Below are positions 2,290-59,426 of a stretch of DNA of 63,110 nucleotides, one piece after another. Position 1 is the stretch's first letter. Every line of letters begins with the position of its first letter. Source of the DNA: Draconibacterium orientale (GTDB lineage Bacteria > Bacteroidota > Bacteroidia > Bacteroidales > JAADGE01); the NCBI GenBank assembly GCA_022729995.1, contig DZBS01000001.1:46930-110039 (forward strand), written 5' to 3'. The position numbers and the translations under genes are program-made. A model generated the notes under the pieces. The model saw only the letters and a list, made by a program, of their open reading frames with translations, was not told the origin of the DNA and ran no database searches.

Positions 2290-3198
2290 ATGATTATGAA
2301 AAACACTCAAATTTTCAAAACTTTATTAATTGCTACTTTATCAACACTATATGCAGTTACATTAATTGCACAACCAAATAAAATGATTTTTGTTGAAGGC
2401 GGAACATTTATGATGGGAAACCCGAGAACAACCGGTGAATATAAAGGAGATACAGATGAAAAACCTGTTCATAAAGTTACTGTCGGCACATTTTATATTT
2501 GCGAAAATGAAGTAACTGTTAAACAATATAAAGAATATTGTACCGCAACAGGCGTAAAAATGCCTTCTGAACCCGATGAAGAATGGTTAGACTCGCATTT
2601 GGATACAAAAAAACTATACGCTTCTTCCGGAAAAAAATGGTGGGGTTGGAACGATTTATTTCCAATTCATAACGTTAACTGGTTTTCTGCTGTAGAGTAT
2701 TGCAATTGGTTAAGTCACAAAGAAAATTTAGAAAAATGTTACACTAAAAATGCCGACGGCGGTTGGGAACTTGACAGAACAAAAAACGGCTATCGTTTAC
2801 CAACAGAAGCAGAATGGGAGTTTGCTGCAAGAGGAGGGAAAAAAAGTATGAATTATATTTTTAGCGGAAGCAATAGTTTAAATGAAGTTGCTTGGTATGA
2901 TGAAACATCATTATTGTCCGGACCTCAAAAAATTAAAACCAAAAAACCTAATGAATTAGGAATATATGATATGAGCGGTAATGTTTGGGAATGGTGTTCG
3001 GATTATTATAAAGCCGATTATTATTCCGGTTCACCTGAAAAAGACCCTTTTTTCTCTGTATCAATGTCATATAGAGTTATAAGAGGCGGTTCGTGGCATT
3101 ATTCGGGTGATTTAGCAACTACCACCGGAAGAGACGGTCCGGAACCTGCTTATACAAATTTTAATTATGGATTTAGATTAGTAAGGTCAAAAATTTAA
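2290..3198 (+). CDS. Secreted FGE-sulfatase (SUMF1/formylglycine-generating enzyme-like) domain protein
   Basis: Signal peptide followed by FVEGGTFMMG, PVHKVTV, NVNWFSAVEYCNWLS, YRLPTEAEWEFAARGG, YDMSGNVWEWCSDYY and RGGSW motifs. Confidence 0.8.
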   Translation: MIMKNTQIFKTLLIATLSTLYAVTLIAQPNKMIFVEGGTFMMGNPRTTGEYKGDTDEKPVHKVTVGTFYICENEVTVKQYKEYCTATGVKMPSEPDEEWLDSHLDTKKLYASSGKKWWGWNDLFPIHNVNWFSAVEYCNWLSHKENLEKCYTKNADGGWELDRTKNGYRLPTEAEWEFAARGGKKSMNYIFSGSNSLNEVAWYDETSLLSGPQKIKTKKPNELGIYDMSGNVWEWCSDYYKADYYSGSPEKDPFFSVSMSYRVIRGGSWHYSGDLATTTGRDGPEPAYTNFNYGFRLVRSKI

Positions 3199-3213
3199 AA
3201 AAATAATGTGCCG

Positions 3214-3326
3214 ATAAAAACATCTGTGTATATTTTTCGACACATTATGAATTAAATATTTAGGATGTTTCTATACCGAGAAATCGGGAAAAGTTCTGAC
3301 TATTGAAAATTAAAAAATATAAACAC
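3214..3326 (+). repeat. Degenerate copy A of the micro-ORF/hairpin element
   Basis: Collinear with 3327-3404 but ATG is replaced by ATA and there is a +1 frame break. A 21-nt insertion contains the hairpin CCGA-GAAA-UCGG. The copy ends with the same 31-nt tail (attgaaaattaaaaaatataaacacatgaaa, 3302-3332) that recurs at 3393-3423. Confidence 0.6.
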
Positions 3327-3404
3327 ATGAAACATCCATGTAAGTTTCACGACACACAAACGAATGATTATTCAGGATGTTCCTATTTGACCATTGAAAA
3401 TTAA
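3327..3404 (+). CDS. Candidate 25-aa micro-ORF MKHPCKFHDTQTNDYSGCSYLTIEN (alternative reading: conserved RNA hairpin)
   Basis: Intact ATG..TAA that ends 13 nt before the ATG of the next gene. A homologous intact copy lies at 15454-15534, and differences in the conserved blocks are synonymous. This ORF is below the size cutoff of the ORF track. Confidence 0.3.
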   Translation: MKHPCKFHDTQTNDYSGCSYLTIEN

Positions 3405-3417
3405 AAAATATAAACAC

Positions 3418-4206
3418 ATGAAAATAATGTCAAAAATTACCGGTTTTATACTTCTATTTACAATATTTTTTAGTAAAGTGACGGCTCAAACAGAGCCTCA
3501 AATGGTGTTTGTAAAAGGAGGAACTTTTATGATGGGAAGTGAAAAAGGCGACAGCGATGAAACTCCTGTTCATAAAGTAACTCTTAGCAATTATTATATT
3601 AGTATTTATGAAATTACAGTTGCCCAGTATAATGAATATTGCAAAGCCACCGGAAAAGGACTTCCCGCATTTCCTTCCGAAGAATGGTATCAAGAGCATG
3701 ACAAAGCCAAAAAATGGGAGTGGAAAGACAATAACCCGATAACATACCTAACTTGGAAAGATGCATCAGACTATTGCGTTTGGCTTTCTAAATCAACAGG
3801 TAAAAATTATTCGCTTCCCACAGAATCACAATGGGAATTTTCAGCCAGAGGCGGAACACTGTCGAAAAATTTTAAATTTAGCGGAAGCGACAATATTAAT
3901 GAAGTTTCATGGTATGACGAAACAACTTACGAAAGAGGTCCAATGCCTGTGGGACGTTTAAAACCCAACGAGTTAGGAATTTATGACATGAGCGGAAATG
4001 CTTGGGAATGGTGTTCGGATTATTATGCAAAATATAAAGCAGGTGTTTTCAAAGACCCAATTGGTGCACCAAAAGGTTTATACAAAGTTGTTAGAGGCGG
4101 TTCGTGGTATTATGTTGATAAAATGTGCTCTGTTACTTCCAGAGACGGACCATACTCAAATTACACAAATTATAATTATGGTTTTAGGGTTGTAATTAAT
4201 CCGTAA
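3418..4206 (+). CDS. Secreted FGE-sulfatase (SUMF1-like) domain protein, tandem paralogue of 2290..3198
   Basis: Same motif set as the upstream paralogue (FVKGGTFMMG, PVHKVTL, YSLPTESQWEFSARGG, YDMSGNAWEWCSDYY, RGGSW). The start is moved from the track's TTG 3394 to ATG 3418 (MKIMSKITGF...), because 3394-3417 belongs to the repeated element tail. Confidence 0.8.
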   Translation: MKIMSKITGFILLFTIFFSKVTAQTEPQMVFVKGGTFMMGSEKGDSDETPVHKVTLSNYYISIYEITVAQYNEYCKATGKGLPAFPSEEWYQEHDKAKKWEWKDNNPITYLTWKDASDYCVWLSKSTGKNYSLPTESQWEFSARGGTLSKNFKFSGSDNINEVSWYDETTYERGPMPVGRLKPNELGIYDMSGNAWEWCSDYYAKYKAGVFKDPIGAPKGLYKVVRGGSWYYVDKMCSVTSRDGPYSNYTNYNYGFRVVINP

Positions 4207-8980: not shown

Positions 8981-10039
8981 TTAATTTTTTAATCTGTTTT
9001 TTGCTAAAATTATTGCTTCATTTAATTTTTGTGATAAAAGTTCTATGTTCGGAAGTTTTGTATAATATTCGGCAACTTTAATATGTTCATTTTTGTCGAG
9101 CATTAAATAGTTTATTTGTTCTTTTGATTTTTCGCTGCAAAGAATTAAGCCGATTGGCAAATTTTCTCCTTCTCGCATTTCATTATGTTCGAGCCATCTT
9201 AGGTAAAGTTCCATTTGTCCCTTGTATTCAGCTTTAAATTTACCAATTTTTAATTCTATAGCAATTAAAGATTTCAATCCTCTGTGATAAAAAAGCAAAT
9301 CAATATAAAAATCTTCATTGTCAATTATAATTCTTTTTTGTCTTGCAAGAAAGGCAAAATCTGTTCCTATTTCGGTTATAAAATTTTGTAAATTTTGTAA
9401 AATTGAACTTTCAAGGTCTTTTTCGCTGTAAGTGTCTTGCAAACCTAAGAAATCTAAGAAATACGGATCTCTGAAAGTTAAATCAGGTGATATTTTATTT
9501 TCTGCTTCAAGTAATTTTAAATCATTAATAATTGTATTTTCGGGAGTTTTGCTAATTGCCGTTCTCTCATAAAGCATGCTCGAAATTCTATCTTGCAGTG
9601 TTCTTACGCTCCATCTTTCATAATTGCACAATTGAATGTAGAATTCTCTTTTTAATTCATCAGATATTGATAAAATTGAATAAATATGCGACCAGCTCAA
9701 TTGTGCAGACACTGTCTGCACAATTTCAAAATCCGGAAATAGTTCATAGAATTTAACAAAGTTATGTAAATTTCGTTTACTAAAACCTCTGCCGTATAAA
9801 CTTGTTAATTGAATTCCTAATTCTGTAATTATATTTTTACCGTAGTCGGCTCTGTTATTTTTAAGAATATCTTGATTTATTTGCTTTCCAATTTGCCAAT
9901 ACAAAATAGAAAGTTCCGAATTTATTGTTTGAGCAACTCTTTTTCGGGTTGAATCAATTAGTGATACAATTGAATTTATCAATTCTGATTTATTAATCTC
10001 AAGATTACTCATTTTATTTACATAGATAGATTTCTCCAA
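8981..10039 (-). CDS. YhcG/DUF1016 family PDDEXK nuclease-like protein
   Basis: 352 aa. The C-terminal core IDLLFYHRGLKSLIAIELKIGKFKAEYKGQMELYLRWL is a PD-(D/E)XK-like motif typical of DUF1016. Confidence 0.75.
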   Translation of the reverse strand: MEKSIYVNKMSNLEINKSELINSIVSLIDSTRKRVAQTINSELSILYWQIGKQINQDILKNNRADYGKNIITELGIQLTSLYGRGFSKRNLHNFVKFYELFPDFEIVQTVSAQLSWSHIYSILSISDELKREFYIQLCNYERWSVRTLQDRISSMLYERTAISKTPENTIINDLKLLEAENKISPDLTFRDPYFLDFLGLQDTYSEKDLESSILQNLQNFITEIGTDFAFLARQKRIIIDNEDFYIDLLFYHRGLKSLIAIELKIGKFKAEYKGQMELYLRWLEHNEMREGENLPIGLILCSEKSKEQINYLMLDKNEHIKVAEYYTKLPNIELLSQKLNEAIILAKNRLKN

Positions 10040-10844: not shown

Positions 10845-10900
10845 TGTGTATATTTTTTAATTATTGAAGATGTGAAATTTGGATTTTTTTCAAAAAAAAG

Positions 10901-11000
10901 TGGGTAAGCTACTTATATCGCACTGCTCAACTTAATTACCCTTGCTTCGGTCAGGACCTGGGGGAGTTCAAAAGGAGCTAGCCGTATAAGACTTACCCGT
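10901..11000 (-). ncRNA. ffs: SRP (4.5S)-like small RNA hairpin
   Basis: GC-rich island of about 100 nt in an AT-rich spacer. The terminal helix is GGGUAAG/CUUACCC. The - strand reads CCCCCAGGUCCUGACCGAAGCAAGGGUAA, which is close to the SRP helix-8 consensus CAGGUCCGGAAGGAAGCAG, with the AGG/AGCA symmetric-loop bases retained. T8 follows the closing stem directly on the - strand, and TATATTTG lies just upstream. Confidence 0.5.
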
Positions 11001-11003
11001 CGC

Positions 11004-11032
11004 AAATATATAACACTTTTTTACAACCAAAA
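11004..11032 (-). promoter_or_regulatory. Bacteroidota-type promoter for the small RNA
   Basis: On the - strand, TTTG (11029-11032) is followed after 17 nt by TATATTTG (11004-11011), which matches the -33 TTTG / -7 TAnnTTTG consensus. The implied TSS is near the GGGUAAG 5' end. Confidence 0.45.
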
Positions 11033-14042: not shown

Positions 14043-15398
14043 ATGTCAGATTTAATTAGAATAAAAAAAGGTTTAGACATCAATTTAGAAGGAAAAGCCG
14101 AGAGAAATTTGTCGGAAACAAAAACATCGGTATTTTATGCCGTTAAACCAACAGATTTTCACGGATTAACACCCAAAGTTATTGCTAAACCCGGAGATGA
14201 AGTAAAGGCAGGAACGCCGTTATTTTATGACAAATACAAACCAAATGTGCTGTTTACGTCACCGGTAAGCGGAAAAATTAGCGCAATAAACAGAGGTGAA
14301 AGAAGAAAAATTCTCGAATTTGTTGTTGAAGCTGACGGAAAAAATCAAAGCGAAGAATTTGTAAAATCTAACCCAAACGAACTTTCAAGAGAAGTAATTA
14401 AAGAAAATCTTCTTAAAAGCGGTTGTTGGCCTTATATTCTTCAAAGACCGTTTGCAATTATTGCAAATCCGAATGACATTCCGAGAGATATTTTTGTTAC
14501 AACATTCAATTCTGCACCATTAGCTCCGGATTTCGATTTTGTTGTGAAAGATGATTTTGAAAATTTCCAAACAGGTATTAACGCATTAAGAAAATTAACC
14601 GACGGAAAAATTTATTTGGGAATAAAAGCCGGGCAAATATCAAGCCTTTATAAAACAACCGCAAATGCCGAAAAAGTTGAATTCTCGGGCCCGCATCCTG
14701 TCGGAAATGTTGGAACTCAAATAAATAAAATAAAACCTGTTAATAAGGGTGAAATTGTTTGGACTTTAAACGCAACAGAAGTTATAATTATTGGTCGATT
14801 GTTCAACAAAGGAATTTATGACCCGACAAGAATCGTTGCAATTACAGGTTCCGAAGTAATCAGACCAGCTTATCATAAAGCAATTTCAGGAATTCAAATA
14901 GAAAAATTAGTTGAAAATAACATCAAAACAACCGACGGCGAAATAAGATATATTTCAGGAAATGTTTTAACCGGAGAAAAAGTTTCACCAAAAAATTTCT
15001 TAGGATTTTATGATTCTCAACTAACAATAATTCCTGAAGGAAACGAACCTGAATTTTTAGGTTGGGGCGCTCCCGGATTCGGAAAATTCAGTATTTCAAG
15101 AACATTCTTTTCGTGGCTGAATAAGAACAAAGAACTTAAAATTAATACAAATCTTAGAGGCGGAAAAAGACCTTTTATTGTAACAGGCGAGTTCGAAAAA
15201 GTTTTTCCTTTGGATATTTTACCAATGCAATTATTGAAAGCAATTCATGTGAAAGACCTTGATTTGATGGAAGAACTCGGTATTTACGAAGTTGCCGAAG
15301 AAGATTTTGCATTATGCGAAGTAATTAACACATCTAAAATAGAAATTCAAAAACTTGTTAGAGAAGGTTTTGAATTTATGATAAAAGAATTAGGTTAA
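14043..15398 (+). CDS. nqrA: Na+-translocating NADH:quinone oxidoreductase subunit A
   Basis: 451 aa with the NqrA-typical N-terminus (IKKGLDINLEGKA). It is the first gene of the nqrABCDEF order. Confidence 0.9.
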   Translation: MSDLIRIKKGLDINLEGKAERNLSETKTSVFYAVKPTDFHGLTPKVIAKPGDEVKAGTPLFYDKYKPNVLFTSPVSGKISAINRGERRKILEFVVEADGKNQSEEFVKSNPNELSREVIKENLLKSGCWPYILQRPFAIIANPNDIPRDIFVTTFNSAPLAPDFDFVVKDDFENFQTGINALRKLTDGKIYLGIKAGQISSLYKTTANAEKVEFSGPHPVGNVGTQINKIKPVNKGEIVWTLNATEVIIIGRLFNKGIYDPTRIVAITGSEVIRPAYHKAISGIQIEKLVENNIKTTDGEIRYISGNVLTGEKVSPKNFLGFYDSQLTIIPEGNEPEFLGWGAPGFGKFSISRTFFSWLNKNKELKINTNLRGGKRPFIVTGEFEKVFPLDILPMQLLKAIHVKDLDLMEELGIYEVAEEDFALCEVINTSKIEIQKLVREGFEFMIKELG

Positions 15399-15453
15399 TA
15401 TTTGAAAATAGATTTAGATATAAAATCATTTTATGAATACAATTAATATTCCG

Positions 15454-15534
15454 ATGAAACACCCATGCATTTATCTTGATGCTAAAAAAATAAATTATTT
15501 TGGATGTTCCTATCTGACCTTTAAAATTAAATAA
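15454..15534 (+). CDS. Candidate 26-aa micro-ORF MKHPCIYLDAKKINYFGCSYLTFKIK (alternative reading: conserved RNA hairpin) inside the nqrA-nqrB spacer
   Basis: Intact ATG..TAA that ends 9 nt before the nqrB ATG. It is collinear, without indels, with 3327-3404. Confidence 0.3.
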   Translation: MKHPCIYLDAKKINYFGCSYLTFKIK

Positions 15535-15543
15535 ATAAAATAG

Positions 15544-16755
15544 ATGAAAGGATTAAGAAAATATATAGAAAAAATTAAACCAAGATTTGAGAAAGGCGGA
15601 AAATACGAAAATTGGCATTCCGTTTTTGAAAGTTTTGAAACATTTTTGTTTGTTTCGGGTGAAACTGCTCCCAAGAAAGGTGCACATATCAGAGATGCAA
15701 TAGATTCAAAAAGACTGATGAGTGTTGTGGTAATTGCATTAATTCCCGCAATGCTATTTGGAATGTGGAATTCAGGATATCAACATTTTTTATCCTTAGG
15801 ACAAAATGTTGCTTTTTTTCAAGAATTTTGGCACGGATTCATTAAAGTTCTTCCTATTATTCTTGTTTCATACATTGCAGGATTAGGAACAGAATTCGTT
15901 TTTGTTTACATCAAGAAAAAAGAAATTGAAGAAGGATTTTTAGTTTCCGGATTATTGATTCCTTTAATTGTTCCTGTTGATATTCCATTATGGATGGTTG
16001 CTGTTGCAACAATTCTTGCAGTAATTTTTGGAAAAGAAGTTTTTGGCGGAACAGGAATGAATATTGTTAACCCTGCACTTTTAACAAGAGCGATACTATT
16101 TTTCGCTTACCCTTCAAAAATGTCGGGTGATAAAATTTGGATTTCGGGTTTAGAAAAAGGAACAGGAATTGTTGACGGATTTTCCGGTGCAACACCTTTA
16201 GCTCAAGCTGCTTCTACTACACACGAACAATTAACACAACACGGATTTCAATTCTTCGACGGATTTAAAGAAAATGCAATAAATTTCTATGACATGTTTA
16301 TGGGCTGGATTCCGGGTTCGATTGGAGAAACATCAACTTTAATGATACTAATTGGTGCCGCAATTTTGCTGTACACCGGAGTTGCAAGCTGGAAAATTAT
16401 GCTTTCCGGACTTGTCGGTGCAGCTGTTATGGGAATCATGCTAAATACGTTTGCAACACCTACAAATCCATATATGGCTTTACCGTTTTATTATCATTAC
16501 GTAATGGGCGGATTTGCTTTCGGTCTAGTTTTTATGGCTACCGACCCTGTTTCTGCAGCTCAAACAGAACGAGGAAAATGGATTTACGGGTTTTTAATAG
16601 GAGTAATGGCAATTCTTATTAGAGTTTTAAATCCTGCATATCCGGAAGGAATGATGCTTGCAATATTATTGATGAACGTATTTGCTCCGCTGATTGACTA
16701 TTATGTTATAAGAGGAAATGTTAGTAAACGTTTAAAACGTGTTAAAGTAAAATAA
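15544..16755 (+). CDS. nqrB: Na+-NQR subunit B
   Basis: 403-aa polytopic membrane protein. It has an SGATPL flavinylation-type motif (FSGATPLAQ) and similarity to RnfD (57002..58003). Confidence 0.9.
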   Translation: MKGLRKYIEKIKPRFEKGGKYENWHSVFESFETFLFVSGETAPKKGAHIRDAIDSKRLMSVVVIALIPAMLFGMWNSGYQHFLSLGQNVAFFQEFWHGFIKVLPIILVSYIAGLGTEFVFVYIKKKEIEEGFLVSGLLIPLIVPVDIPLWMVAVATILAVIFGKEVFGGTGMNIVNPALLTRAILFFAYPSKMSGDKIWISGLEKGTGIVDGFSGATPLAQAASTTHEQLTQHGFQFFDGFKENAINFYDMFMGWIPGSIGETSTLMILIGAAILLYTGVASWKIMLSGLVGAAVMGIMLNTFATPTNPYMALPFYYHYVMGGFAFGLVFMATDPVSAAQTERGKWIYGFLIGVMAILIRVLNPAYPEGMMLAILLMNVFAPLIDYYVIRGNVSKRLKRVKVK

Positions 16756-21008: not shown

Positions 21009-22454
21009 ATGAAAAATTTATTTACTGTTTTCTTTATAACGTTTTCTTTTAATGTAATATTCTCTCAAAACGCTTATGACATAAAAGTTGTGAGCGGAAC
21101 TTTTTTGGGAAACGAACAACGAAATTATTACGGTAACGAAGCTCCCGACAGACTCGATATTATTTGGAAACTTGATTTGGGCGAAGGTGTAAGTCCTGCA
21201 TACGGTTACGACAAAGTTTGGAAAGGAGCGGGCTGGACAGGTCAACCGCTTTTTATTCGCGAAAACGGAAAAGGATTTCTAATTCTTGGTGCTTTCGATT
21301 ACAATCTTAAGAAAATTGACGCTCAAACCGGTAAAATTGTTTGGGAATATAAATTTGATGATATTCTCAAAGGAACTGCAACTTTTTGGGAAAACAAAAA
21401 CGAAACAGACCTCGAAAAAAGATATATAATTATGCAAGGAAGCAGATTTGGCGTGAAAAATAAAATTACCGACGAATTTATTCCTTCATTTAGAGCAATT
21501 TCATATCTCACCGGAAAAGAACTTTGGCGATTGAATTCCAAAAAAACCGATTGTTACAGTCGCGATGTCGACGGCTCGGCGGTTGTTGTTAACGATACTG
21601 CATATCTTTGTTTAGAGAACGGGATTTTTACCGTTTTCAATCCAAATCCAGACAGCGTGCGAATGAAAGACGGAATGTTACAACCGCAGATTTATAAAGA
21701 AATTCAATATTATAATGCCGAAGATTTGAAAACTCACGGCGATGACGTTGTTTCAGAATCGTCGCCAACATATTTCAACGGAATTGTATACACTACTTCG
21801 GGTTCAGGTCATGTTTACGGACACGGAATTAGTGCCGATACAACCGTTTTTGATTTTTTCACGGGAACAGATATAAACGGCTCGGCTCCCGTAACAGACG
21901 ATTCGTGTTTGATTCTTCCGATAGAAAAACAATACACGGCAGGGCAGGGCGGTGTTATGAAAATTAATCCGCAAAAAACCGGAAACGATGCTGTTGTTTG
22001 GTATTATCCCACAGAAAATAAAACTTGGTATCATTGGGAAGGCGGAATTATCGGTTCGGCGTCGGTTAATGATGCTTATGTTGAAGGTGATTCTGTGAAA
22101 GTTGCCGTTTTTATTGATGTAACAGGACATTTGGTTGTTGTGGAACACAATAAAATTGATTCCGAAGATTTTTCAATAGGTACGGACGGAAAATCTGTAT
22201 TTCGCAAACCAAAAGTGCTTTTCGATTATCTTTTGCGAGGCACAATTTCAACTCCAATTATTGTAAAAGATAAAATAATTGCTGCAACCGATGCCGGAGT
22301 TTATCTTTTTAAAATCGATTTAAAGAAAAAAACTCTTGTTCTTTTAGATTCTGCCGTTAAGGATTCCGATTTTGACGCAACGCCTATTGCTGTTGACGGA
22401 AGAATTTATCTTGCCGGAAGAAACGGATATTTGTATTGTTTCGGAAAAAAATAA
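21009..22454 (+). CDS. Secreted PQQ-like/BamB-like beta-propeller repeat protein
   Basis: Signal peptide. Repeated G.VY/DG.IY blades and a C-terminal DGRIYLAGRNGYLYCFG. It is a paralogue of 42135..43664. Confidence 0.7.
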   Translation: MKNLFTVFFITFSFNVIFSQNAYDIKVVSGTFLGNEQRNYYGNEAPDRLDIIWKLDLGEGVSPAYGYDKVWKGAGWTGQPLFIRENGKGFLILGAFDYNLKKIDAQTGKIVWEYKFDDILKGTATFWENKNETDLEKRYIIMQGSRFGVKNKITDEFIPSFRAISYLTGKELWRLNSKKTDCYSRDVDGSAVVVNDTAYLCLENGIFTVFNPNPDSVRMKDGMLQPQIYKEIQYYNAEDLKTHGDDVVSESSPTYFNGIVYTTSGSGHVYGHGISADTTVFDFFTGTDINGSAPVTDDSCLILPIEKQYTAGQGGVMKINPQKTGNDAVVWYYPTENKTWYHWEGGIIGSASVNDAYVEGDSVKVAVFIDVTGHLVVVEHNKIDSEDFSIGTDGKSVFRKPKVLFDYLLRGTISTPIIVKDKIIAATDAGVYLFKIDLKKKTLVLLDSAVKDSDFDATPIAVDGRIYLAGRNGYLYCFGKK

Positions 22455-22455
22455 A

Positions 22456-22575
22456 GTTGGTGTGTTGATGTGATAATGTGATAATTTGGTGATGTGCTAA
22501 TGTGATAATTTGATGATGTGGAAATTTGAAAATTTGAAAATGTGAAAATGTGGAAATGTAGAAATTTGAAAATCC
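22456..22575. repeat. Octanucleotide tandem array, 15 units (consensus G-R-W-R-A-T-K-T)
   Basis: The units, read directly, are gttggtgt gttgatgt gataatgt gataattt ggtgatgt gctaatgt gataattt gatgatgt ggaaattt gaaaattt gaaaatgt gaaaatgt ggaaatgt agaaattt gaaaatcc. The array starts 2 nt after the stop codon at 22454. Confidence 0.85.
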
Positions 22576-37440: not shown

Positions 37441-37866
37441 TTATTTATCTTTTCCGGAAACAAGAACAAGTTTGTAATATTCATAAAGTTCTCTTTGGTC
37501 GTCGGCTTCAGTTGTTCCAAATTTATGACCAACTGCACGACCCATTTTTCCTGCTTCTTTTCCAAATTCACCTTTCAATTCAACTTTATAGATTATATCT
37601 GTTTGCATTTTAATTGTAATTTTCTTTGTATAATCGGCAATTGTGTCCGAATTAAAAGAAACAATTAATTCATATTTTCCCGGATATAAATCTTCAATCA
37701 AAACCTCGTCGTTAAACATTGCATCTTGCGGTTCTCCGTTCAAATATACTTTTATGAATGATGTTTCGTCTTCCATATCGGTATAAATTTTAATTGATGA
37801 AGTTTGAGCTGATATTGAAATGCTCAAAAACATCAATAAAATCAAGCTTAAGTTTAATTTTTTCAT
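37441..37866 (-). CDS. Small secreted hypothetical protein
   Basis: 141 aa with a signal peptide. No motif recognised. Confidence 0.55.
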   Translation of the reverse strand: MKKLNLSLILLMFLSISISAQTSSIKIYTDMEDETSFIKVYLNGEPQDAMFNDEVLIEDLYPGKYELIVSFNSDTIADYTKKITIKMQTDIIYKVELKGEFGKEAGKMGRAVGHKFGTTEADDQRELYEYYKLVLVSGKDK

Positions 37867-37890
37867 GTGTTTATATTTTTTAATTAATCA

Positions 37891-42134: not shown

Positions 42135-43664
42135 ATGTTTAATTTTAAGATGTTTATGAAAACGCCATTTTTTTTGACTGTTATTACCGTTTTAATAGCA
42201 ACTTCTTGTAATTTTTCTCAATCCAAAGAAAATTCTTCAAATTATAAAAATGAAGATTCTATAAAAATTGAAATAGATTCTTTTTTAATCAAAAATAAAA
42301 TTATCAACCAAACTTATTTGGGAAACGAAAAAAGAAATTATTACGGAGATATTGCTCCGGATACTTTACAAATTATTTGGAAACTTGCGTTGGGAACCGG
42401 ACAAACAAGAGTGGGAAGCAAAATTTTAACTTGGTCGGGTGCCGGTTGGACCGGACAACCGTTAATTGTTAAAGAAGACAGCATAACATATCTTATTCAA
42501 GGAACTTACAACCACAACATGTTGAAAATCAGAGAGAAAGATGCAAAAATAATTTGGGCTAAAGATTTTGGCGACGTTATCAAAGGAACCGGAACAATTT
42601 TTTACAACAAAAATGCCGAAGATGAAAACAATAAACTCGTTATTCTGCAAGGAAGCAGACAAGGCTTTAACACAAGTTTTCGACAAAATATTATTACAAG
42701 CTACCGTGCAATTTCCTATTTTACAGGAAAAGAACTTTGGTCTTTAAACAGCAAACTTACAGAAAGTTACAGTAGAGATGTTGACGGTTCTTCTTTAATT
42801 ATTAACGATACAGCTTATATTGGATTAGAAAATGCAATTTTTACTGTTTTTAATCCAAATCCAAAATTTTCGTCACTGAAAGACGGAATTATTCAGCCAA
42901 AAGTATACGAAGAACATTCGTTGTACGAAGAAAACGATATTAAACTTCACGGAGGAAATCTTGTTACAGAATCATCGCCTTCACATCTTTTAAATCATAT
43001 TTATATTACATCGGGTTCTGGCCATGTTTACGGCTATAATTTAAAAACACGAAAAATAGATTGGTCATTTTTTACGGGTTCCGATATGGACGGTTCGCCA
43101 ACTGTTACCGACGATAATTGTATACTAATTTCTCTCGAAAAACAATATATTCCCGGTCCCGGAGGAGTTTTTAAATTAGACCCTTCGCAAAGTTCTGATT
43201 CTTGCGTAAAATGGTTTTTTCCGGTTCAAAGCATTCATTTTGCTTTTTGGGACGGCGGAATTATCGGTTCTGTTTCTGTTAACGACAGTTACAGAAAAAA
43301 TGATGATGAAATTCCAAACTTAGCAGCTTTTTCAGCAATCGACGGAAATCTTTATGTTGTGAACACAAAAAAAATTACCGGCAAAAAAGTTATAGGGCCC
43401 GATAATAAAACACTTTATGATACGCCCGAATTGGTTTTTAAATACAAAATTACAGAATCAATTTCAACACCAATAATTGTTGGAAATAAGATTATTGCTG
43501 CATCATATTCCGGAATTTATTTGTTTGAATTTGATAAAAATCTGAATTTTAAATTAATTTCGCATATTGATATTGGCTCAACAGAAGCAACGCCGATTGT
43601 GAATAACGGACGAATTTATGTTGCTACAAAAACAGGATATTTATATTGTTTGGGAAGAAAATAA
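42135..43664 (+). CDS. Secreted/lipoprotein PQQ-like beta-propeller repeat protein, paralogue of 21009..22454
   Basis: About 50% identity by eye across the full length with the 21-kb copy (YLGNEKRNYYG, IIWKL, GAGWTGQPL, AISYFTGKELW, YSRDVDGS, FTVFNPNP, TSGSGHVYG, GRIYVATKTGYLYCLG). Confidence 0.7.
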   Translation: MFNFKMFMKTPFFLTVITVLIATSCNFSQSKENSSNYKNEDSIKIEIDSFLIKNKIINQTYLGNEKRNYYGDIAPDTLQIIWKLALGTGQTRVGSKILTWSGAGWTGQPLIVKEDSITYLIQGTYNHNMLKIREKDAKIIWAKDFGDVIKGTGTIFYNKNAEDENNKLVILQGSRQGFNTSFRQNIITSYRAISYFTGKELWSLNSKLTESYSRDVDGSSLIINDTAYIGLENAIFTVFNPNPKFSSLKDGIIQPKVYEEHSLYEENDIKLHGGNLVTESSPSHLLNHIYITSGSGHVYGYNLKTRKIDWSFFTGSDMDGSPTVTDDNCILISLEKQYIPGPGGVFKLDPSQSSDSCVKWFFPVQSIHFAFWDGGIIGSVSVNDSYRKNDDEIPNLAAFSAIDGNLYVVNTKKITGKKVIGPDNKTLYDTPELVFKYKITESISTPIIVGNKIIAASYSGIYLFEFDKNLNFKLISHIDIGSTEATPIVNNGRIYVATKTGYLYCLGRK

Positions 43665-44143: not shown

Positions 44144-44233
44144 ATGAAATATCCGTTTATATCTCTCTAAATAAAAAAGAATGATTATAAAGGATATTCC
44201 TATCAGACCTTTGAAGTTTTAAAATACAAACTG
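44144..44233 (+). repeat. Decayed copy D of the micro-ORF/hairpin element upstream of purH
   Basis: It reads ATG AAA TAT CCG TTT ATA TCT CTC TAA ... AAT GAT TAT AAA GGA TAT TCC TAT CAG ACC. It is collinear with the intact copies but has an in-frame TAA at codon 9, and both Cys codons are replaced. The frame then runs without a stop into the purH ATG. Confidence 0.55.
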
Positions 44234-45718
44234 ATGAAAAAGAAAATAAAATCAGCACTAATTTCAGTTTACAAAAAAGAAGGTTTAGATAATATTGTTT
44301 CTGAACTAAAACGCTTAGGAATAGTTATTTATTCAACAGGCGGAACTCTCGAGTATTTGAATCAAAAAGGAATTGAAGCAACCGCAGTTGAAGAACTCAC
44401 AAAATATCCTTCAATTTTGGGAGGAAGAGTTAAAACACTTCATCCTAAAGTATTTGGAGGAATATTGGCAAGAAGAGATAATGAAAACGACAAATTGCAA
44501 CTTGCAGAATATCAAATTCCGGAAATAGATTTGATAATTGTTGATTTATATCCGTTTAAAGAAACTTTAGAAGCGCAAAAAAGCGAACAAGAAATAATAG
44601 AAAAAATAGATATTGGCGGAATTTCACTAATAAGAGCAGGAGCGAAAAATTTTAGTGATGTATTAATAATTTCATCTTCAATTCAATACAAAGAATTATT
44701 TCAAATATTGAATAATAATAACGGAGAAACAACAATTGAAACAAGAAAAAAGTTTGCCGGCGAAGCATTTACAGTTTCATCGGAATACGACAAAGAAATA
44801 AATTCGTTTTTTATCGGGGAAAGCAAAATATTAAAATACGGCGAAAATCCGCATCAAAAAGCGAAATTTATCGGCGATTTTGATAAAATATTTGAGCAAA
44901 TTCACGGAAAAGAAATTTCATATAATAATCTTTTGGATATTGATGCAGCCATCGGAATTATATCAGAATTTAACGAAACAACTTTCGCTGTTTTAAAACA
45001 CAATAATCCTTGCGGATTAGCATCACGAAATACACTTTTGGAAGCTTGGAAAGATGCATTGGCAGGCGACCCTGTTTCTGCATTTGGAGGTGTAATTGTT
45101 ACAAATAAAACCGTTGACGACCAAACGGCAGAAGAAATAAATAAAATATTTTTTGAAGTGATAATTGCTCCCGGATATTCCGAAAAAGCATTAGAATTTC
45201 TTAAACAAAAGAAAAACAGAATTATTTTAATTCAGAAAGAGCAAGTTGAAAATCAAAAGTTAGTAAGAACAGCTTTAAACGGTTATCTCGAACAAGATAA
45301 AGATTTAAAAACAGTTACTGAAGCCGATTTAAATTTTATTACAAATACAAAACCGACAAAAGAACAAATTTACGAATTGATTTTTGCAAATAAAATTGTG
45401 AAACACACAAAATCAAACGCAATTATTCTTACAAAAAACAAACAGCTAATTGCAGGCGGAGTTGGGCAAACATCACGAGTTGATGCACTAAAACAAGCAA
45501 TTGACAAAGCACATAATTTTAGTTTCAATTTAGAAGGAGCAATTATGGCATCAGATGCATTTTTTCCTTTTTCCGATTCGGTTGAAATTGCTCACAAAGC
45601 AGGAATAAATGCAATAATTCAGCCCGGAGGCTCAATTAGAGATAACGACACAATAGACTATTGCAACCAAAATAATTTGGTTATGGTCTTCACAGGAATC
45701 AGACATTTTAAACACTAA
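44234..45718 (+). CDS. purH: Bifunctional AICAR transformylase / IMP cyclohydrolase
   Basis: ALISVYKKEGL, STGGT, GGRVKTLHPKV, YGENPHQ, LKHNNPCG and the C-terminal RHFKH. Confidence 0.92.
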   Translation: MKKKIKSALISVYKKEGLDNIVSELKRLGIVIYSTGGTLEYLNQKGIEATAVEELTKYPSILGGRVKTLHPKVFGGILARRDNENDKLQLAEYQIPEIDLIIVDLYPFKETLEAQKSEQEIIEKIDIGGISLIRAGAKNFSDVLIISSSIQYKELFQILNNNNGETTIETRKKFAGEAFTVSSEYDKEINSFFIGESKILKYGENPHQKAKFIGDFDKIFEQIHGKEISYNNLLDIDAAIGIISEFNETTFAVLKHNNPCGLASRNTLLEAWKDALAGDPVSAFGGVIVTNKTVDDQTAEEINKIFFEVIIAPGYSEKALEFLKQKKNRIILIQKEQVENQKLVRTALNGYLEQDKDLKTVTEADLNFITNTKPTKEQIYELIFANKIVKHTKSNAIILTKNKQLIAGGVGQTSRVDALKQAIDKAHNFSFNLEGAIMASDAFFPFSDSVEIAHKAGINAIIQPGGSIRDNDTIDYCNQNNLVMVFTGIRHFKH

Positions 45719-53054: not shown

Positions 53055-54944
53055 TTATTCAACTACAATTTTTTCGGTAATATTTATATTTTCGTTTGAA
53101 ATTCTTATAAAATAAACACCATTTGCAAAATAAGAAGTATTAAATTCTTCAGTTTGTTTTGTTGAATTGATATTTAAAATTTCTTTTCCTGTAACATTGG
53201 TAATTTTGATATTTACGAATGAATTATTTGCAGGTAATTCAATTTTAAAATAATCTTTAGCAGGGTTTGGGAAAATTTTTACTGAATTTGAAATTTCTTT
53301 AATTTGAGCAGCACCAAATCCTAAAACTGCATTTTCGCTTTTAATGCTTCCGTAAAATTCATCGGTAACAATACAAGAATAAATTCCTTGGTCAGTTTCT
53401 GAAACTCCTGTTATTGTGAGCGTATTTGTAGTAACTCCGGAATTAAATTTTATTAAATCGTCGTATAAATCAACACCGTTTTTTTGCCATCTGTAAGTTA
53501 AAGTTCCTTCGCCAACAGCTTCAACAGTAAAAGTTTGATCTGTTCCTGCGATAATACTATATAAGCTTTCGGGTTGAGTTGTAATGTTCAAAATAGTTGC
53601 ATGCCAAGGTTCGTAACCGTTAATTGCATCATACGCTTCAAAAAATAAATCGTTTCCCGAAAGACAAAATTCTTGAGGATATGAATCAGATGTGCCTGCA
53701 TTTAAGTCTTTTACAAGAACAGTTCCTCTTTCGGTTCCGTCAGTTCTCCAGAATTCACTTCCGTAATCGAGTGAATATGCACTAAAAAATAATTTATCTT
53801 TTATTATGATAAATCCCCAAGGAGATGAACTGCTTGAACCGGAATATATATCTTTTAACATGTATGTTCCTTCAGAGGTTCCGTCGGAAACCCAAAGTTC
53901 GGTTCCGTTAATGCCGTCATTGGCTTGGAAATAAAGTTTATCGCCAAATATAATGAAATCCTCAAGTCCTGACCCTGAACTGCCTTCATAAATATCTTTA
54001 ATCATAACGGTTCCTTGCTCGGTGCCGTCAGTTTTCCACAATTCTTTTCCAAAATTTGCACCTGCATCACCTGCTTTGAAATACATTGTCCAAACATTTG
54101 GAGTATAATATGAAGGACCGGAATTGTCTGTTCCTGCAGCAATATTTTTAAGAATGTGAGTTCCGTCAGCGGTTCCGTCTGTAATCCATGTTTCAATTCC
54201 GTAATCGTCGGATTCTGATGTAAAAACTAATTTATCTCCCCAAACGGTAAATTTGGGTTCGCTCGGTTCGCCGTTATCTGATGCTGAAATATCTTTAAGC
54301 ATAACAGTTCCTTCGAGCGTTCCGTCTGTAACCCAAGGTTCAAGACCGGTTGTTCCGTCGTTAGCAACAAAATATACTTTTCCGTTGAAAAGTGTTGTTC
54401 CGGCAATTAGTGAACCAATATCCGTAGGATTAATTTCTTTCAATAATGCAGTTCCGTCAGTAGTTCCGTTACTAACCCATAATTCATGGTTTCCGTTTGT
54501 TACTCCGTCAACTCCGCCGTTTTGAGCACGAAATACGAATTTTCCGTTTACCTCTTTAAAATAAGCTGTTGCCGAACTATTTCCGGGATAAATTTCTTTT
54601 ACTAAAACAGTTCCGTCTGTTGTTCCGTCGCTTTTCCAAAGTTGGCGGTCTAAAACTCCGTCATCGCCGTTGAAATATATCATATCGTTGAATATGATGT
54701 ATCCAATTTCGTCTGATGCAAAATCAACTTCTTTAACCATTACAGTTCCGTCTGTTGTTCCGTCTGTTGACCAAAATTGGTTATTTGCTCCAAAAAAAAC
54801 CTTTCCTTTATATTCAAAAAATACGGAAGGATAGCTGCTTCCTGTTCCGGGAATAATATCTTTTAATAGAGTTTGTGAATATCCTGCATTGGAAATTAAT
54901 ATTAATGCCAAGGCTAAAATAAATTTTTTGTAGATTCTTTTCAT
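53055..54944 (-). CDS. ELWxxDGT-repeat protein with an Ig-like domain and a T9SS C-terminal sorting domain
   Basis: About 9 repeats of (E)LW.(S/T)DGT..GT.(L/M)(V/L)KDI. An Ig-like segment (GIYSCIVTD) follows, and the C-terminus KIFPNPAKDYFKIEL...NGVYFIRI is typical of Por/T9SS tails. Confidence 0.85.
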   Translation of the reverse strand: MKRIYKKFILALALILISNAGYSQTLLKDIIPGTGSSYPSVFFEYKGKVFFGANNQFWSTDGTTDGTVMVKEVDFASDEIGYIIFNDMIYFNGDDGVLDRQLWKSDGTTDGTVLVKEIYPGNSSATAYFKEVNGKFVFRAQNGGVDGVTNGNHELWVSNGTTDGTALLKEINPTDIGSLIAGTTLFNGKVYFVANDGTTGLEPWVTDGTLEGTVMLKDISASDNGEPSEPKFTVWGDKLVFTSESDDYGIETWITDGTADGTHILKNIAAGTDNSGPSYYTPNVWTMYFKAGDAGANFGKELWKTDGTEQGTVMIKDIYEGSSGSGLEDFIIFGDKLYFQANDGINGTELWVSDGTSEGTYMLKDIYSGSSSSSPWGFIIIKDKLFFSAYSLDYGSEFWRTDGTERGTVLVKDLNAGTSDSYPQEFCLSGNDLFFEAYDAINGYEPWHATILNITTQPESLYSIIAGTDQTFTVEAVGEGTLTYRWQKNGVDLYDDLIKFNSGVTTNTLTITGVSETDQGIYSCIVTDEFYGSIKSENAVLGFGAAQIKEISNSVKIFPNPAKDYFKIELPANNSFVNIKITNVTGKEILNINSTKQTEEFNTSYFANGVYFIRISNENINITEKIVVE

Positions 54945-55119: not shown

Positions 55120-55695
55120 TTATGCAATACCCGAAAATCCCATAAAAGCCAATGCAAGTAAACCCGCAGTAATAAAGGAAATAGGAACACCTTTCATTCC
55201 TTCCGGAATATCGGATAAATCCAACTGTTCTCTAATTCCCGCAAATATTGTTAAAGCAAGTGCAAAGCCTATTGATGTTGCAATTGCGTAAACTGTGCTT
55301 TTTATTAAATCAAAACCTTCGGTGCTGACAGCTAAAATTGCAACTCCCAAAACTGCACAGTTTGTTGTAATTAACGGTAAATATATTCCGAGTGCTTGAT
55401 AAAGCGAAGGACCGGTTTTTTTCAGAATTATTTCAACCAACTGAACAAGTGCTGCAATTACCAAAATGAATGTAATTGTTTGCATGTATTGTATCGAAAA
55501 TTCCTCAAGTATATATCTTTGAATAAGATAAGTTACAATTGTTGCAATTGTAATTACAAAAACAACTGCACCGCCCATGCCTAAAGCAGTTTCTATTTTT
55601 TTTGATACTCCGAAAAACGGACAAACTCCCAAAAATTTTGCTAAAACTACGTTATTAACAAAAATTGCCGATATAATAATTAAAATGTATTCCAT
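55120..55695 (-). CDS. rnfA: Rnf electron transport complex subunit A
   Basis: 191 aa. The N-terminus reads VNNVVLAKFLGVCPFFGVS, and the protein is homologous to NqrE. Confidence 0.9.
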   Translation of the reverse strand: MEYILIIISAIFVNNVVLAKFLGVCPFFGVSKKIETALGMGGAVVFVITIATIVTYLIQRYILEEFSIQYMQTITFILVIAALVQLVEIILKKTGPSLYQALGIYLPLITTNCAVLGVAILAVSTEGFDLIKSTVYAIATSIGFALALTIFAGIREQLDLSDIPEGMKGVPISFITAGLLALAFMGFSGIA

Positions 55696-55715
55696 CTATC
55701 TGTTTTTAATGAAGT

Positions 55716-56312
55716 TTATATTTTTTGTGCCGATTTTTTATTTAATCTGTTTACAATTGCAATTAAATATCCCAAAACAATGAAAGCGCCGGGTGCTAAT
55801 ACGAATACAAGAGATCCGTCGCCTTTATATATTGATATGTTAAACATTGAGCCGCTTCCTAAAATTTCTCTTATTGCACCCAAGATTGTAAGTGCAAGCG
55901 AAAATCCGAGACCCATTCCGGCTCCGTCGATAATTGAATCTAAAACATTATTTTTTGATGCATAAGCTTCTGCTCGTCCTAAAATAATACAGTTCACAAC
56001 AATTAGAGGAATGTATAAACCCAAAATTGCAAATAAGTCAGGAACATAAGCCTGCATTGTTAATTCAACAATTGTTACAAATGAAGCAATAATTACAATA
56101 AATGAAGGAATTCTTACTTTATCTGGAATCAAATTTTTTACCATCGAAACAACGGCATTCGACATTATCAAAACAAATGTTGTAGCCAATCCCATTGCAA
56201 GTCCGTTAATTGCAGATGTTGTTGTTCCAAGTGTTGGGCAAAGTCCCAAAAGCATTACAAACACTGCGTTTTCTTTGAAAAAACCTTTTGTGAAATTATT
56301 CAGTTTGCTCAT
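55716..56312 (-). CDS. rnfE: Rnf complex subunit E
   Basis: 198 aa. The motif [12 protein letters not shown] is present, and the protein is homologous to NqrD. Confidence 0.9.
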
Positions 56313-56368
56313 ATTTTTTGTTTTTTGACAGATAAATTTCTGTAATTTTTTAATCGAATTAAAAACTT

Positions 56369-56968
56369 TTATTTTTTTATTTTACTGAAAGCAATTGATG
56401 CTCTGTTTATTGCATCGCAAAAAGCACGAGAGCTAATTGTTGATGCTGTAATTGCATCAATTTGTCCACCGTCTTTTTTTACTTTTATATTTTTCGGACT
56501 GTTATCGGAATTAAAAATCGGAATTATTCCGTTGAATTGGTTGCTCCAATCTGATTTTGATTTTTGCATTTTATCGCCAAGTCCGGGAGTTTCTTTATGA
56601 TCCAAAACAGAAGTGTTTTTTATGCTTCCGTCAGGCTTAAAACCAACCATAACCCAAACTTCGCCGCTAAAACCTTTTTTTGAATAAGATTTTATTGCAA
56701 TTCCAACTATATTACTTCCTTTTTTTGCCGGAAAACATTCAAGTGAATCATTTTGAGCAATTTCAATCATTATTTTTTCTTCAATAGGATTATTATCAAA
56801 ATCGGCGACTACTTCTTTTATTGCATTTTTCTGTTTTTCGAGTTTTGCTTTTTCTATCGGTCCTTTTGTAGCTTGATAAACAAATGCCAATGCTGTTGAT
56901 GCAATTGCCGATATTATAAATAATACGACAAGCATATTTTTAAATGTTGATTCGGTTTTTGATGCCAT
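56369..56968 (-). CDS. rnfG: Rnf complex subunit G (FMN-binding)
   Basis: Single TM helix, with ETPGLG and [10 protein letters not shown] flavinylation-type motifs. Confidence 0.88.
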
Positions 56969-57001
56969 TTTTCTATTTATAAAAAATGTTGTTAAATAGA
57001 T

Positions 57002-58003
57002 TTATATTTTTTGTTTTTCTCCAAAACGTTTTGGTTTCAAATATGTGTTAATCATTGGAGTAAGTCCGTTCATAATTAAAATTGCAAAAGAAACTCCTTC
57101 AGGAAATGCTCCGAATGCTCTTATTATTACCGTTAACATTCCAATTCCGATACCGTAGATTATCATTCCTTTTTTGCTCATTGGCGATGTAACATAATCC
57201 GTTGCCATAAATATTGCTCCCAATAAAACTCCTCCTGTGAGAATATTAAATATTGGTCCGGTAAATCTTTCGGGATTTCCTAATGAAAGTATTTCTGTAA
57301 ATATTGCAATTGTAACTATAATTGAAACAGGAATGTGCCAAGTTATTATTTTTCGGAAAAGCATATATGCAAATCCTATTAATAAAGCAATTGCAGATAT
57401 TTCTCCTAACGAACCGCTCATGTTTCCCAAAAACATTTGTAATTGGTCGGGCAATCCTTGTATTTCGCTAATTTTAACCCCGTTTCTTATTGCTTCTTTT
57501 ACAATTCCAAGTGGTGTTGCTCCTGTAGTTACGTCCATATACGGAAGAAGTTTTTCGGTAATTGCACTTGGTTTTGGCCAGCTTGTCATTTGAACCGGAA
57601 ACGAAATTAACATGAAAATACGTGCTGCAATTGCCGGATTAAAAATATTGTTTCCTAAACCGCCAAATGATAATTTTGAAACTGCAATTGCAAAAAATGA
57701 GCCTACAATTATTATCCACACAGGCAAATTGCTCGGGACGTTAAATGCTAACAGTAAACCTGTTATTGCGGCAGAACCGTCAAGTATTGTATTTTCTTTT
57801 TTTAGAATATATTTTGTTATAAGATATTCAAAAACTATTGCTGAAACAACCGAACTTGTTGTTAATATTAGTGCTCCAAGTCCGAAAAAATATATTGAAA
57901 CAAGTAATGTAGGAATTAATGCAATTAAAACACCGTACATAAGTTTTTTAACTGTTTCTTTTCCGTAAATGTGCGGTGAGGGTGATACAAATAATTTGTT
58001 CAT
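57002..58003 (-). CDS. rnfD: Rnf complex subunit D
   Basis: 333-aa polytopic protein with VSPSPH, TGATPL and MATDYVTSP motifs. Confidence 0.9.
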   Translation of the reverse strand: MNKLFVSPSPHIYGKETVKKLMYGVLIALIPTLLVSIYFFGLGALILTTSSVVSAIVFEYLITKYILKKENTILDGSAAITGLLLAFNVPSNLPVWIIIVGSFFAIAVSKLSFGGLGNNIFNPAIAARIFMLISFPVQMTSWPKPSAITEKLLPYMDVTTGATPLGIVKEAIRNGVKISEIQGLPDQLQMFLGNMSGSLGEISAIALLIGFAYMLFRKIITWHIPVSIIVTIAIFTEILSLGNPERFTGPIFNILTGGVLLGAIFMATDYVTSPMSKKGMIIYGIGIGMLTVIIRAFGAFPEGVSFAILIMNGLTPMINTYLKPKRFGEKQKI

Positions 58004-58035
58004 ATCTTTTTATATTTATTTCTTTTAAAAATATT

Positions 58036-59367: not shown

Positions 59368-59426
59368 ATTATTCTGTTTGAACTTTTGTTAATATTTTTA
59401 TATCCAAAATGGATTTATTTAGTATT

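Follow-up and report, generated by a model that had tools for sequence, protein, structure and literature searches.

The spacer between nqrA and nqrB described here most probably (probability about 0.8) represents one copy of a small, non-coding dispersed repeat of ~87–130 nt, which inserted 3′ of the ATGA start of nqrB and in doing so restored both the start codon and the reading frame, perhaps leaving the gene that follows translationally coupled to it. The spacer is part of a 63,110-nt stretch of DNA, hereafter the window, and the host of the repeat is an uncultured Bacteroidales lineage. A small SRP RNA of the Bacteroidales type (10898–11005, minus strand; Rfam RF04183, 93 bits), the sole above-threshold Rfam match in the window, places the organism in this order. 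The nearest NqrB among 5.8 billion proteins is just 83% identical (locus L186), and that of locus L047 is 82% identical; the lineage is therefore one without close sequenced relatives.

The nqrA–nqrB spacer and its relatives

Pfam matches confirm all six genes of the operon, NqrA to NqrF, with nqrA at 14043–15398 and nqrB at 15544–16755. The spacer between them (15399–15543) is 145 nt long, while the other junctions measure 64 nt (nqrB–C), 41 nt (C–D), 47 nt (D–E), and 64 nt (E–F). An earlier, sequence-only reading of this DNA had rightly singled out the spacer as an outlier against neighbors of 41–64 nt. Its companion premise, that nqrA and nqrB normally abut, does not hold in this clade, where the spacers of 13 relatives span 27–70 nt, although at 145 nt the present spacer is still well apart from them. 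In the comparison of spacers across relatives that the same reading had called for, not one of these 13 nqrA–nqrB junctions (L186, L047, L187, and ten others) carries the element. Also borne out is the presence of a 26-codon open reading frame (ORF) at 15454–15534, stop codon included, which ends 9 nt 5′ of the nqrB ATG; the ORF listing gives it as 33 aa, owing to an earlier in-frame ATG at 15433.

The two nearest relatives reveal how the spacer is composed. The 49-nt spacer of L186 aligns with window positions 15399–15453 (score 28, versus 12.6 ± 2.4 and a maximum of 20.5 for shuffled sequences), and the 58-nt spacer of L047 aligns with the same segment. Both end in ...AATTCCG, followed immediately by ATGAAAGGATTA, the beginning of nqrB. 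Written out, the junction reads ...ATTCCG-ATGAAA-GGATTA in these two relatives and ...ATTCCG-ATGAAA-[84 nt]-ATGAAA-GGATTA in the window, which thus possesses 90 extra nucleotides between ATGAAA and GGATTA. In all relatives, nqrB begins with ATGAA(A/G) straight after the homologous leader, and the NqrB of the window aligns to its relatives from residue 1 (MKGL...). Judged by these alignments, the spacer is a composite of 55 nt of ancestral DNA (15399–15453, plus strand), corresponding to the original leader of nqrB, and a 90-nt insertion.

Since the leaders of L186 and L047 run straight into the nqrB ATG and the window has 90 nt more, the ATG of the 26-codon ORF is, on the alignment evidence, demonstrably the former start codon of nqrB. 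The ATGAAA at 15454–15459 (plus strand) accordingly comprises the ancestral start and codon 2, as judged from the nqrB starts of the relatives; it now opens the 26-codon ORF and forms the left copy of a direct repeat. Counted 3′ of ATGA, the inserted 90-nt element (AACACCC...ATAG-ATGA) occupies 15458–15547 (plus strand), which is equivalent to 15454–15543; it scores 96 bits with a covariance model of the repeat and is absent from the relatives. Its last bases rebuild ATGAAA in frame with the remainder of nqrB, providing at 15544–15549 (plus strand) both the working start codon, from which NqrB aligns at residue 1, and the right copy of the direct repeat. The direct repeat flanking the insertion reads gATGAAA in full.

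An inserted element tolerated within the operon was among the possibilities raised by the sequence-only reading, and it is this one that prevails, given the uninterrupted site in two outgroups and the occurrence of the same element before unrelated genes. The second ATGA, by restoring the start codon and the reading frame, accounts for the toleration of an insertion inside an essential respiratory operon. Within the species, four contigs encoding the same NqrB carry the element without a single difference, and no presence/absence polymorphism was found: contigs with identical NqrB, PurH, FGE-sulfatase, and flanking proteins (4–5) all carry the identical element. The case for mobility is therefore built on filled and empty sites between species only.

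Copies of the repeat

Seven copies were found in total, five of them in the organism of the window, within about 75 kb, and two in other Bacteroidales. Those in the organism precede an FGE-sulfatase gene (two copies in tandem), nqrB, purH, and an acyltransferase gene, and the remaining two precede an RND gene (L030) and a TolC-like gene (L070). Every copy lies directly 5′ of a gene and shares the orientation of that gene (7/7), and the function of the gene varies from locus to locus; all copies within the window are on the plus strand, each directly before the ATG of a plus-strand gene. Copy 0 (3213–3326, plus strand) is decayed, with its old ATG now ATA and an extra small hairpin (CCGAGAAATCGG) inserted, and is arranged in tandem with copy 1 (3327–3421, plus strand). 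The latter is situated directly 5′ of the second FGE-sulfatase gene (ATG at 3418) and bears an ORF of 25 codons whose stop lies 13 nt before the new ATG. The FGE-sulfatase genes are themselves tandem paralogues, at 2290–3198 and 3418–4206. Beyond the nqrB copy (copy 2), copy 3 (44144–44237, plus strand) is located directly 5′ of purH (ATG at 44234), with an ORF of only 8 codons. Copy 7, 5′ of a gene for a 600-aa acyltransferase, lies just past the right end of the window (L188, 13783–13873, minus strand). The L030 copy separates two RND transporter genes in a Bacteroidales MAG, and the L070 copy occurs 5′ of its TolC-like gene on a metagenome contig.

The scans that recovered these copies were anchored on the conserved 3′ core and did not presuppose a 5′ boundary. 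Exact-core scans returned 45 and 20 matches in genomes and 17 in metagenome data, nearly all of them chance matches in coding DNA, with L030 and L070 the only real copies. A covariance model was built on six copies, and the seventh, copy 7, was then found with it; since the core of copy 7 has diverged, exact-core scans undercount the family. The repeat is clearly set apart from chance, with 0 matches expected in shuffled sequences and covariance-model scores of 69–100 bits. The element, ~90 nt in length, has a G+C content of 24–32%, and the DNA of the window 31%.

All six intact copies exhibit the same termini. They begin with ATGA(AA) and end with ...AC(A/C)(G/C)-ATGA(AA), and in each the final ATG serves the gene as its working start. 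Old and new ATG are 87–91 nt apart, or 130 nt in L070. The strict flanking direct repeat is ATGA, which lengthens to ATGAAA or gATGAAA where the second codon of the gene permits. A second empty site is available for L030, where the stop/start overlap (ATGA) of the two RND genes has been interrupted by the element. This overlap is intact in the 82%-identical relatives L196 and L197, and such a filled-versus-empty comparison confirms the insertion at this locus as well. At purH, a Bacteroidetes −7 promoter box, TAccTTTG, precedes the 5′ ATG by 28 nt and the working ATG by 118 nt; in 54 of the 57 relatives that possess such a box, it precedes the purH ATG by 15–54 nt. The acyltransferase gene likewise has a TAnnTTTG box 37 nt before the 5′ ATG. 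Together, the empty site of L030 and these box spacings show that the 5′ ATGA is an old start codon elsewhere, too.

Tandem copies 0 and 1 have 31-nt tails (3302–3332 and 3393–3423) that are 100% identical, while their bodies are ~70% alike, a pattern suggestive of gene conversion or of a duplication in place. It is exactly within this tail repeat that a Logan contig (L194) breaks off. Elsewhere in the window, a lone exact copy of the copy 1 tail plus ATGAAA(A), 25–26 nt in length and devoid of the hairpin, is present at 37861–37885 (minus strand; 0 matches expected by chance), where it constitutes the entire leader between the stop codon of alaS and a gene for a 141-aa signal-peptide protein. 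This lone tail may be a remnant of an element, as an excision or deletion footprint, or may be the source of the tail.

Structure, small ORF, and rival readings

On the basis of RNAalifold and pair counts, a hairpin termed P1 is predicted within the element. Its 7 bp (AAYAYCC...GGATRTT) are formed in the nqrB copy by a 5′ arm, AACACCC (15458–15464, plus strand), which starts one base past the old ATG, and a 3′ arm, GGATGTT (15502–15508, plus strand), with one C•A mismatch in this copy. The arms are ~37 nt apart and accommodate a small, variable inner hairpin between them. In this first helix 98% of the alignment cells are paired, and two copies bear C–G to U–A changes on both sides. Located 3′ of P1 is a conserved block, CCTATCTGACC, whose UAUCUG is complementary to CAGAUG, that is, to the new start codon and the three bases preceding it. 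In the nqrB copy, this “anti-start” segment (TATCTG, 15511–15516, plus strand) would pair with TAGATG at 15541–15546. This second helix shows two-sided changes in copy 3 (to A–U) and copy 7 (to G–C), evidence that is suggestive only, and copy 7 has a divergent version of the conserved block CTATCTGACC. The copy alignments further delineate an A-rich tail of ~24 nt (ACC TTTAAAATTAAATAAATAAAATAG; 15517–15543, plus strand), which contains no Shine–Dalgarno sequence and serves as the new leader of nqrB. Bacteroidetes do not depend on Shine–Dalgarno pairing.

Taken across the seven sequences, 94.5% of the cells in the proposed pairing are standard pairs, compared to 29–42% when the partners are slid. 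Three pairs have changed on both sides, and covariation as high as that observed arises in 8–13 of 500 column shuffles. With just seven copies, among which copies 0, 1, and 7 are close relatives, both the covariation and the ORF statistics are weak, and the conserved structure predicted for the element is suggestive, not proof. The individual hairpins are thermodynamically weak, with single-copy z-scores of −0.6 to +0.6 on the plus strand, and the minus strand folds more stably in copies 2 and 3. An RNA transcribed from the minus strand was considered and rejected, since U•G wobbles in L030, copy 0, copy 7, and helix 2 favor the plus strand and the orientation follows the downstream gene. A resemblance to a C/D-box snoRNA (GAUGA...CUGA) was similarly discarded, being at chance level and not kept in copies 0 and 1. 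Rfam 15 contains no relevant family for the whole window at the gathering threshold, and the spacer at E < 10 recovers only unrelated snoRNA and miRNA models, with E > 1. No terminator-like site was detected in the spacer.

IS200/IS605 elements have a hairpin at each end, rely on a Y1 HUH transposase, and integrate beside a fixed tetranucleotide, on its 3′ side. The 4-nt ATGA repeat, the lack of terminal inverted repeats, and the presence of a hairpin beside a junction-complementary segment would be compatible with two modes of movement of the present element: the action of a transposase supplied in trans that duplicates a 4-bp target, or single-strand insertion 3′ of ATGA in the manner of IS200/IS605. 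The traits that may be shared with that family are a hairpin near an end, insertion at a fixed tetranucleotide, and the lack of inverted terminal repeats; by analogy, the complementarity between the junction and the segment by the hairpin foot recalls the pairing of a guide with its cleavage site. The element differs in having only one nested hairpin evident, and no transposase was found in the available DNA: neither a transposase nor an integrase turned up among the 50 of 55 ORFs in the window that were scanned against Pfam. The sole nuclease-like gene seen in the window, a YhcG/DUF1016 PDDEXK-nuclease gene at 8981–10012 (minus strand), presents no evidence of a tie to the element.

As to the target, 64% of the genes here start with ATGA, and start codons make up ~47% of the ATGA sites at which an insertion would be tolerable. 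Six insertions out of six at start codons then have a P of only ~0.01 under a model of an ATGA target plus selection. Active recognition of start codons is not claimed; an ATGA target combined with purifying selection suffices. One may go further and propose an undescribed class of mobile DNA, aimed at translation starts (ATGA) by an internal guide (TATCTG, beside the hairpin foot) that pairs with the junction (CAGATG/A), and made harmless by the portable Bacteroidetes-style leader and start that it carries. This proposal is rather unlikely to be correct. If true, it would describe a programmable “start-codon hopper” capable of rewiring gene 5′ ends, and possibly operon stoichiometry, genome-wide, and the guide pairing would make the element of interest as a targeting mechanism.

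A competing account of the spacer centers on the 26-codon ORF itself (MKHPCIYLDAKKINYFGCSYLTFKIK, then stop), in which the sequence-only reading had seen a possible NQR subunit or assembly factor. In its general form, this account takes the ORF to be the gene of a genuine small protein, for instance a Cys-containing NQR subunit, an assembly factor, or a metal-binding peptide, and holds that this gene was copied to several loci. The two cysteines noted earlier, Cys5 and Cys18, are indeed common to the ORFs at 3327 and 15454; copies 1, 2, and 7 all keep an open ORF of 25–26 codons with the shared residues MKH.C...D.....Y.GCS; an ORF that extensive arises in just ~5% of shuffles; and copies 1 and 2 differ by four synonymous codon changes. 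However, none of the 13 relatives examined has the element in its nqr operon, and the element lies 5′ of unrelated FGE-sulfatase, purH, acyltransferase, RND, and TolC-like genes. Measured from the old ATG, the ORF comprises 25, 26, and 25 codons in copies 1, 2, and 7, but only 8 in copy 3 and 4 in L070, while that of L030 has 20 codons with the 3′ block in another frame and copy 0 has no ATG at all, so that four of the seven copies are broken, frame-shifted, or ATG-less. The three pairwise comparisons of intact ORFs show no coding signature: differences are flat across codon positions 1/2/3 (6/7/9, 5/6/4, and 6/7/12), without third-position bias, and non-synonymous codon changes (12, 10, and 13) far exceed synonymous ones (4, 2, and 5, respectively). 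The conserved residues map to hairpin-arm nucleotides that are conserved in non-coding copies too. In particular, the shared Cys codons sit in conserved nucleotides of the hairpin region, CCATGY beside the 5′ arm and, within the 3′ arm, GGATGTTCC; the nucleotides of these codons are altered or out of frame in copies 3, L030, and L070. The ATG of the ORF, moreover, is nqrB's own former start codon. Given an ORF broken in four of seven copies, flat codon positions, and absence from other nqr operons, a genuine peptide is highly improbable; these comparisons mark the ORF as a by-product left by the insertion rather than a respiratory subunit, and the false lead of a “new 3-kDa NQR subunit” is thereby removed.

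Two regulatory accounts also have to be weighed. The element could be first and foremost a cis-regulatory RNA, for example a riboswitch, a thermosensor, or an attenuator-like leader, that these genes took over for translational control, with the start codon sequestered through pairing of UAUCUG with CAGAUG. Such a function would sit well with the compensatory changes in the conserved hairpin, with a second helix that spans −3 to +3 of the working start and has two changes on both sides, with the U•G wobbles of helix 2 on the plus strand in most copies, and with an orientation that matches the regulated gene in 7/7 copies. It is nevertheless unlikely: the downstream genes share no common pathway or ligand logic, no relevant Rfam family is matched even at E < 10, the plus strand folds no more stably than shuffled sequences, and the anti-start block, divergent in copy 7, is split by the inserted hairpin in copy 0. 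Nor would the exact ATGA-to-ATGA signature of insertion be expected of a leader that evolved in place. A portable promoter-plus-leader cassette, in the manner of Neisseria REP2, would provide nqrB–F and the other downstream genes with a transcription start of their own, and the conserved GACCWTTGAAAA does resemble TAnnTTTG, the Bacteroidetes −7 box, from which it departs at one or two positions, and is overlapped by a weak sigma-70-like match at 15514–15541. Yet the exact TAnnTTTG box occurs in none of the copies, the sigma-70 hits are near the shuffle background (6 versus 2.6 ± 1.5) in a scan not designed for Bacteroidetes promoters, and at purH and the acyltransferase gene a proper box is already in place at a normal distance from the old ATG. 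The chances of this cassette account appear slim.

For the preferred reading, a dispersed repeat that inserted at the nqrB start and rebuilt it, the question arises of how ribosomes would reach the new start codon. Translation through the element, and not the product of that translation, may be what is kept. Every reading frame from the old ATG encounters a stop before the new ATG. In three of the six intact copies, the ORF remains open until 9, 12, or 13 nt before the new ATG, and in the other three its stop is 24–115 nt away; shuffles of the interior place the end of the ORF at 9–13 nt in ~5% of cases. This excess suggests that translation through the element may feed the downstream gene, and renders plausible the earlier suggestion of an upstream ORF that couples nqrB translation. 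The predicted cost of opening in the nqrB copy is 3.0 kcal/mol for the old AUG versus 4.0 kcal/mol for the new one. Since the prediction makes the old AUG no less accessible than the new, the ORF in this copy is probably translated, which would carry ribosomes through the segment able to pair with the nqrB start. A general rule by which the hairpin silences the old start codon was examined and abandoned, because the predicted opening costs differ in direction across copies, that of the old AUG being the higher in copy 3, L030, and copy 1, and the lower in copy 2 and L070. The ORF is also broken in copies 3, L030, and L070, and is thus not required for the element to persist.

We infer the following relay for nqrB. 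Ribosomes would still initiate at the old ATG on the old nqrB leader, traverse the hairpin and the block capable of pairing with the new start while translating a short junk ORF, and stop 9 nt 5′ of the new ATG, whereupon they might re-initiate or just leave the new start unfolded. The expression of nqrB would in this way remain tied to its original initiation signals, with coupling either by re-initiation or by RNA unfolding. Such elements also constitute a natural test bed for both modes of coupling in Bacteroidetes, a group whose initiation rules are still poorly known. That translation itself, and not its product, may be kept accords with the account of short “delivery” ORFs and MIRUs in a review of translational coupling (PMC12548453).

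Known elements and other features of the window

By analogy, the closest known kind of element is the mycobacterial MIRU, followed by Neisseria REP2. MIRUs, as summarized in two reviews, are 40–100-bp units within operons and are flanked by 4-nt direct repeats (PMC12548453, PMC3184786); in the same summaries they “insert themselves at start codons,” by which the gene that follows becomes coupled to an internal ORF (PMC12548453, citing Supply et al. 1997; PMC3184786). The present repeats are likewise short, dispersed, found in operons with several copies per genome, co-oriented with genes, and inserted at start codons, as judged by empty and filled sites, with tetranucleotide direct repeats. 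They share, in addition, a small by-product ORF, downstream expression that would be preserved, and occasional tandems, here copies 0 and 1. Several differences stand against these likenesses. The ORF of a MIRU overlaps the downstream start with a −4 spacing, whereas that of the present element stops 9–13 nt before the start or, in half of the copies, is broken; no −4-nt overlap was found in the six intact copies, the stops of which lie 9–115 nt before the new ATG. The element also carries its own ~24-nt, A-rich, non-Shine–Dalgarno leader with a new ATGA, along with the conserved hairpin and the segment complementary to the new start. It belongs to another phylum (Bacteroidota, 31% G+C) and has no known sequence relationship to MIRUs, to which it is likened by description; for a Bacteroidales host (as marked by its SRP RNA type and its T9SS and Gld genes) with 31% G+C, sequence homology to MIRUs is not expected. 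The element shows the MIRU strategy, in which a repeat lands on a start codon and the gene stays expressed, to exist independently in a second, unrelated phylum, in a form suited to initiation that does not use Shine–Dalgarno pairing.

The resemblance to REP2 lies in what is delivered to the gene. REP2 elements are outlined as 120–150 bp long and inclusive of a promoter and a Shine–Dalgarno site, and REP2 as well as the Borrelia IR-A/IR-B repeats are portrayed as lacking terminal inverted repeats, containing internal stem-loops, and supplying a 5′ UTR and ATG (PMC3184786). The present element, too, is directly upstream of genes, has an internal stem-loop and ends that form no inverted repeat, and provides leader and ATG, its tail plus ATGA being the working start in 6/6 intact copies. 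It departs from REP2 in having no detected promoter, as assessed by the absence of an exact TAnnTTTG box and by a sigma-70 scan ill-suited to Bacteroidetes, and insertion at a pre-existing start with retention of the old ATG does not figure in the passages on REP2 in that source (PMC3184786).

Miniature inverted-repeat elements (MITEs), exemplified by Correia elements, RUP, and Nezha, are characterized in the same source as small, non-autonomous, dispersed, and often co-transcribed (PMC3184786). Hairpin folding, short flanking direct repeats, and empty and filled sites between relatives recall this class. In contrast to MITEs, the element is strictly oriented to the downstream gene and rebuilds its start codon, and it lacks terminal inverted repeats: its ends, AAYAYCC... 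and ...ACAGATGA, are not complementary, and the inverted repeat of P1 is internal. Nor does it conform to a REP or BIME unit, a G+C-rich palindrome of ~35 nt with a GTAG-type head that is located after genes, since it is ~90 nt long, has 24–32% G+C, and always precedes a start codon. In practical terms, such elements create upstream ORFs and long structured leaders before essential genes; they can mislead gene callers, as with the 33-aa ORF here, and break assemblies, as with the contig that ends exactly in the repeated tail.

The remainder of the window contains several other features. At a distance of 35 kb from the nqr operon is an entire Rnf-type operon (RnfA/E, G, D, C, and B-like; 55120–60302, minus strand), accompanied by an RseC/MucC-like gene at 60347–60772; the organism therefore encodes both NQR and RNF. 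Two PQQ/β-propeller-like paralogues, at 21009–22454 and 42135–43664, lie 21 kb apart and share DNA blocks of 74–75% identity. Just past the stop codon of the former, at 22466–22573, is an array in which a unit of 8 nt (consensus ATGTGAAA; 78% matches) recurs in tandem ~13 times, with a super-period of 24 nt. A minus-strand gene at 53055–54944 encodes a 629-aa protein with a T9SS C-terminal sorting domain, Ig-like domains, and eight repeats of ~144–150 nt (~48 aa). Finally, two tandem paralogous genes for 178-aa proteins (60949–61485 and 61642–62178), which have no Pfam match and are 73% identical in DNA over 300 nt, are directly followed by a gene for a radical-SAM/SPASM enzyme (in the continuing contig L188, 10264–11286), an arrangement that may constitute a precursor-plus-maturase pair.
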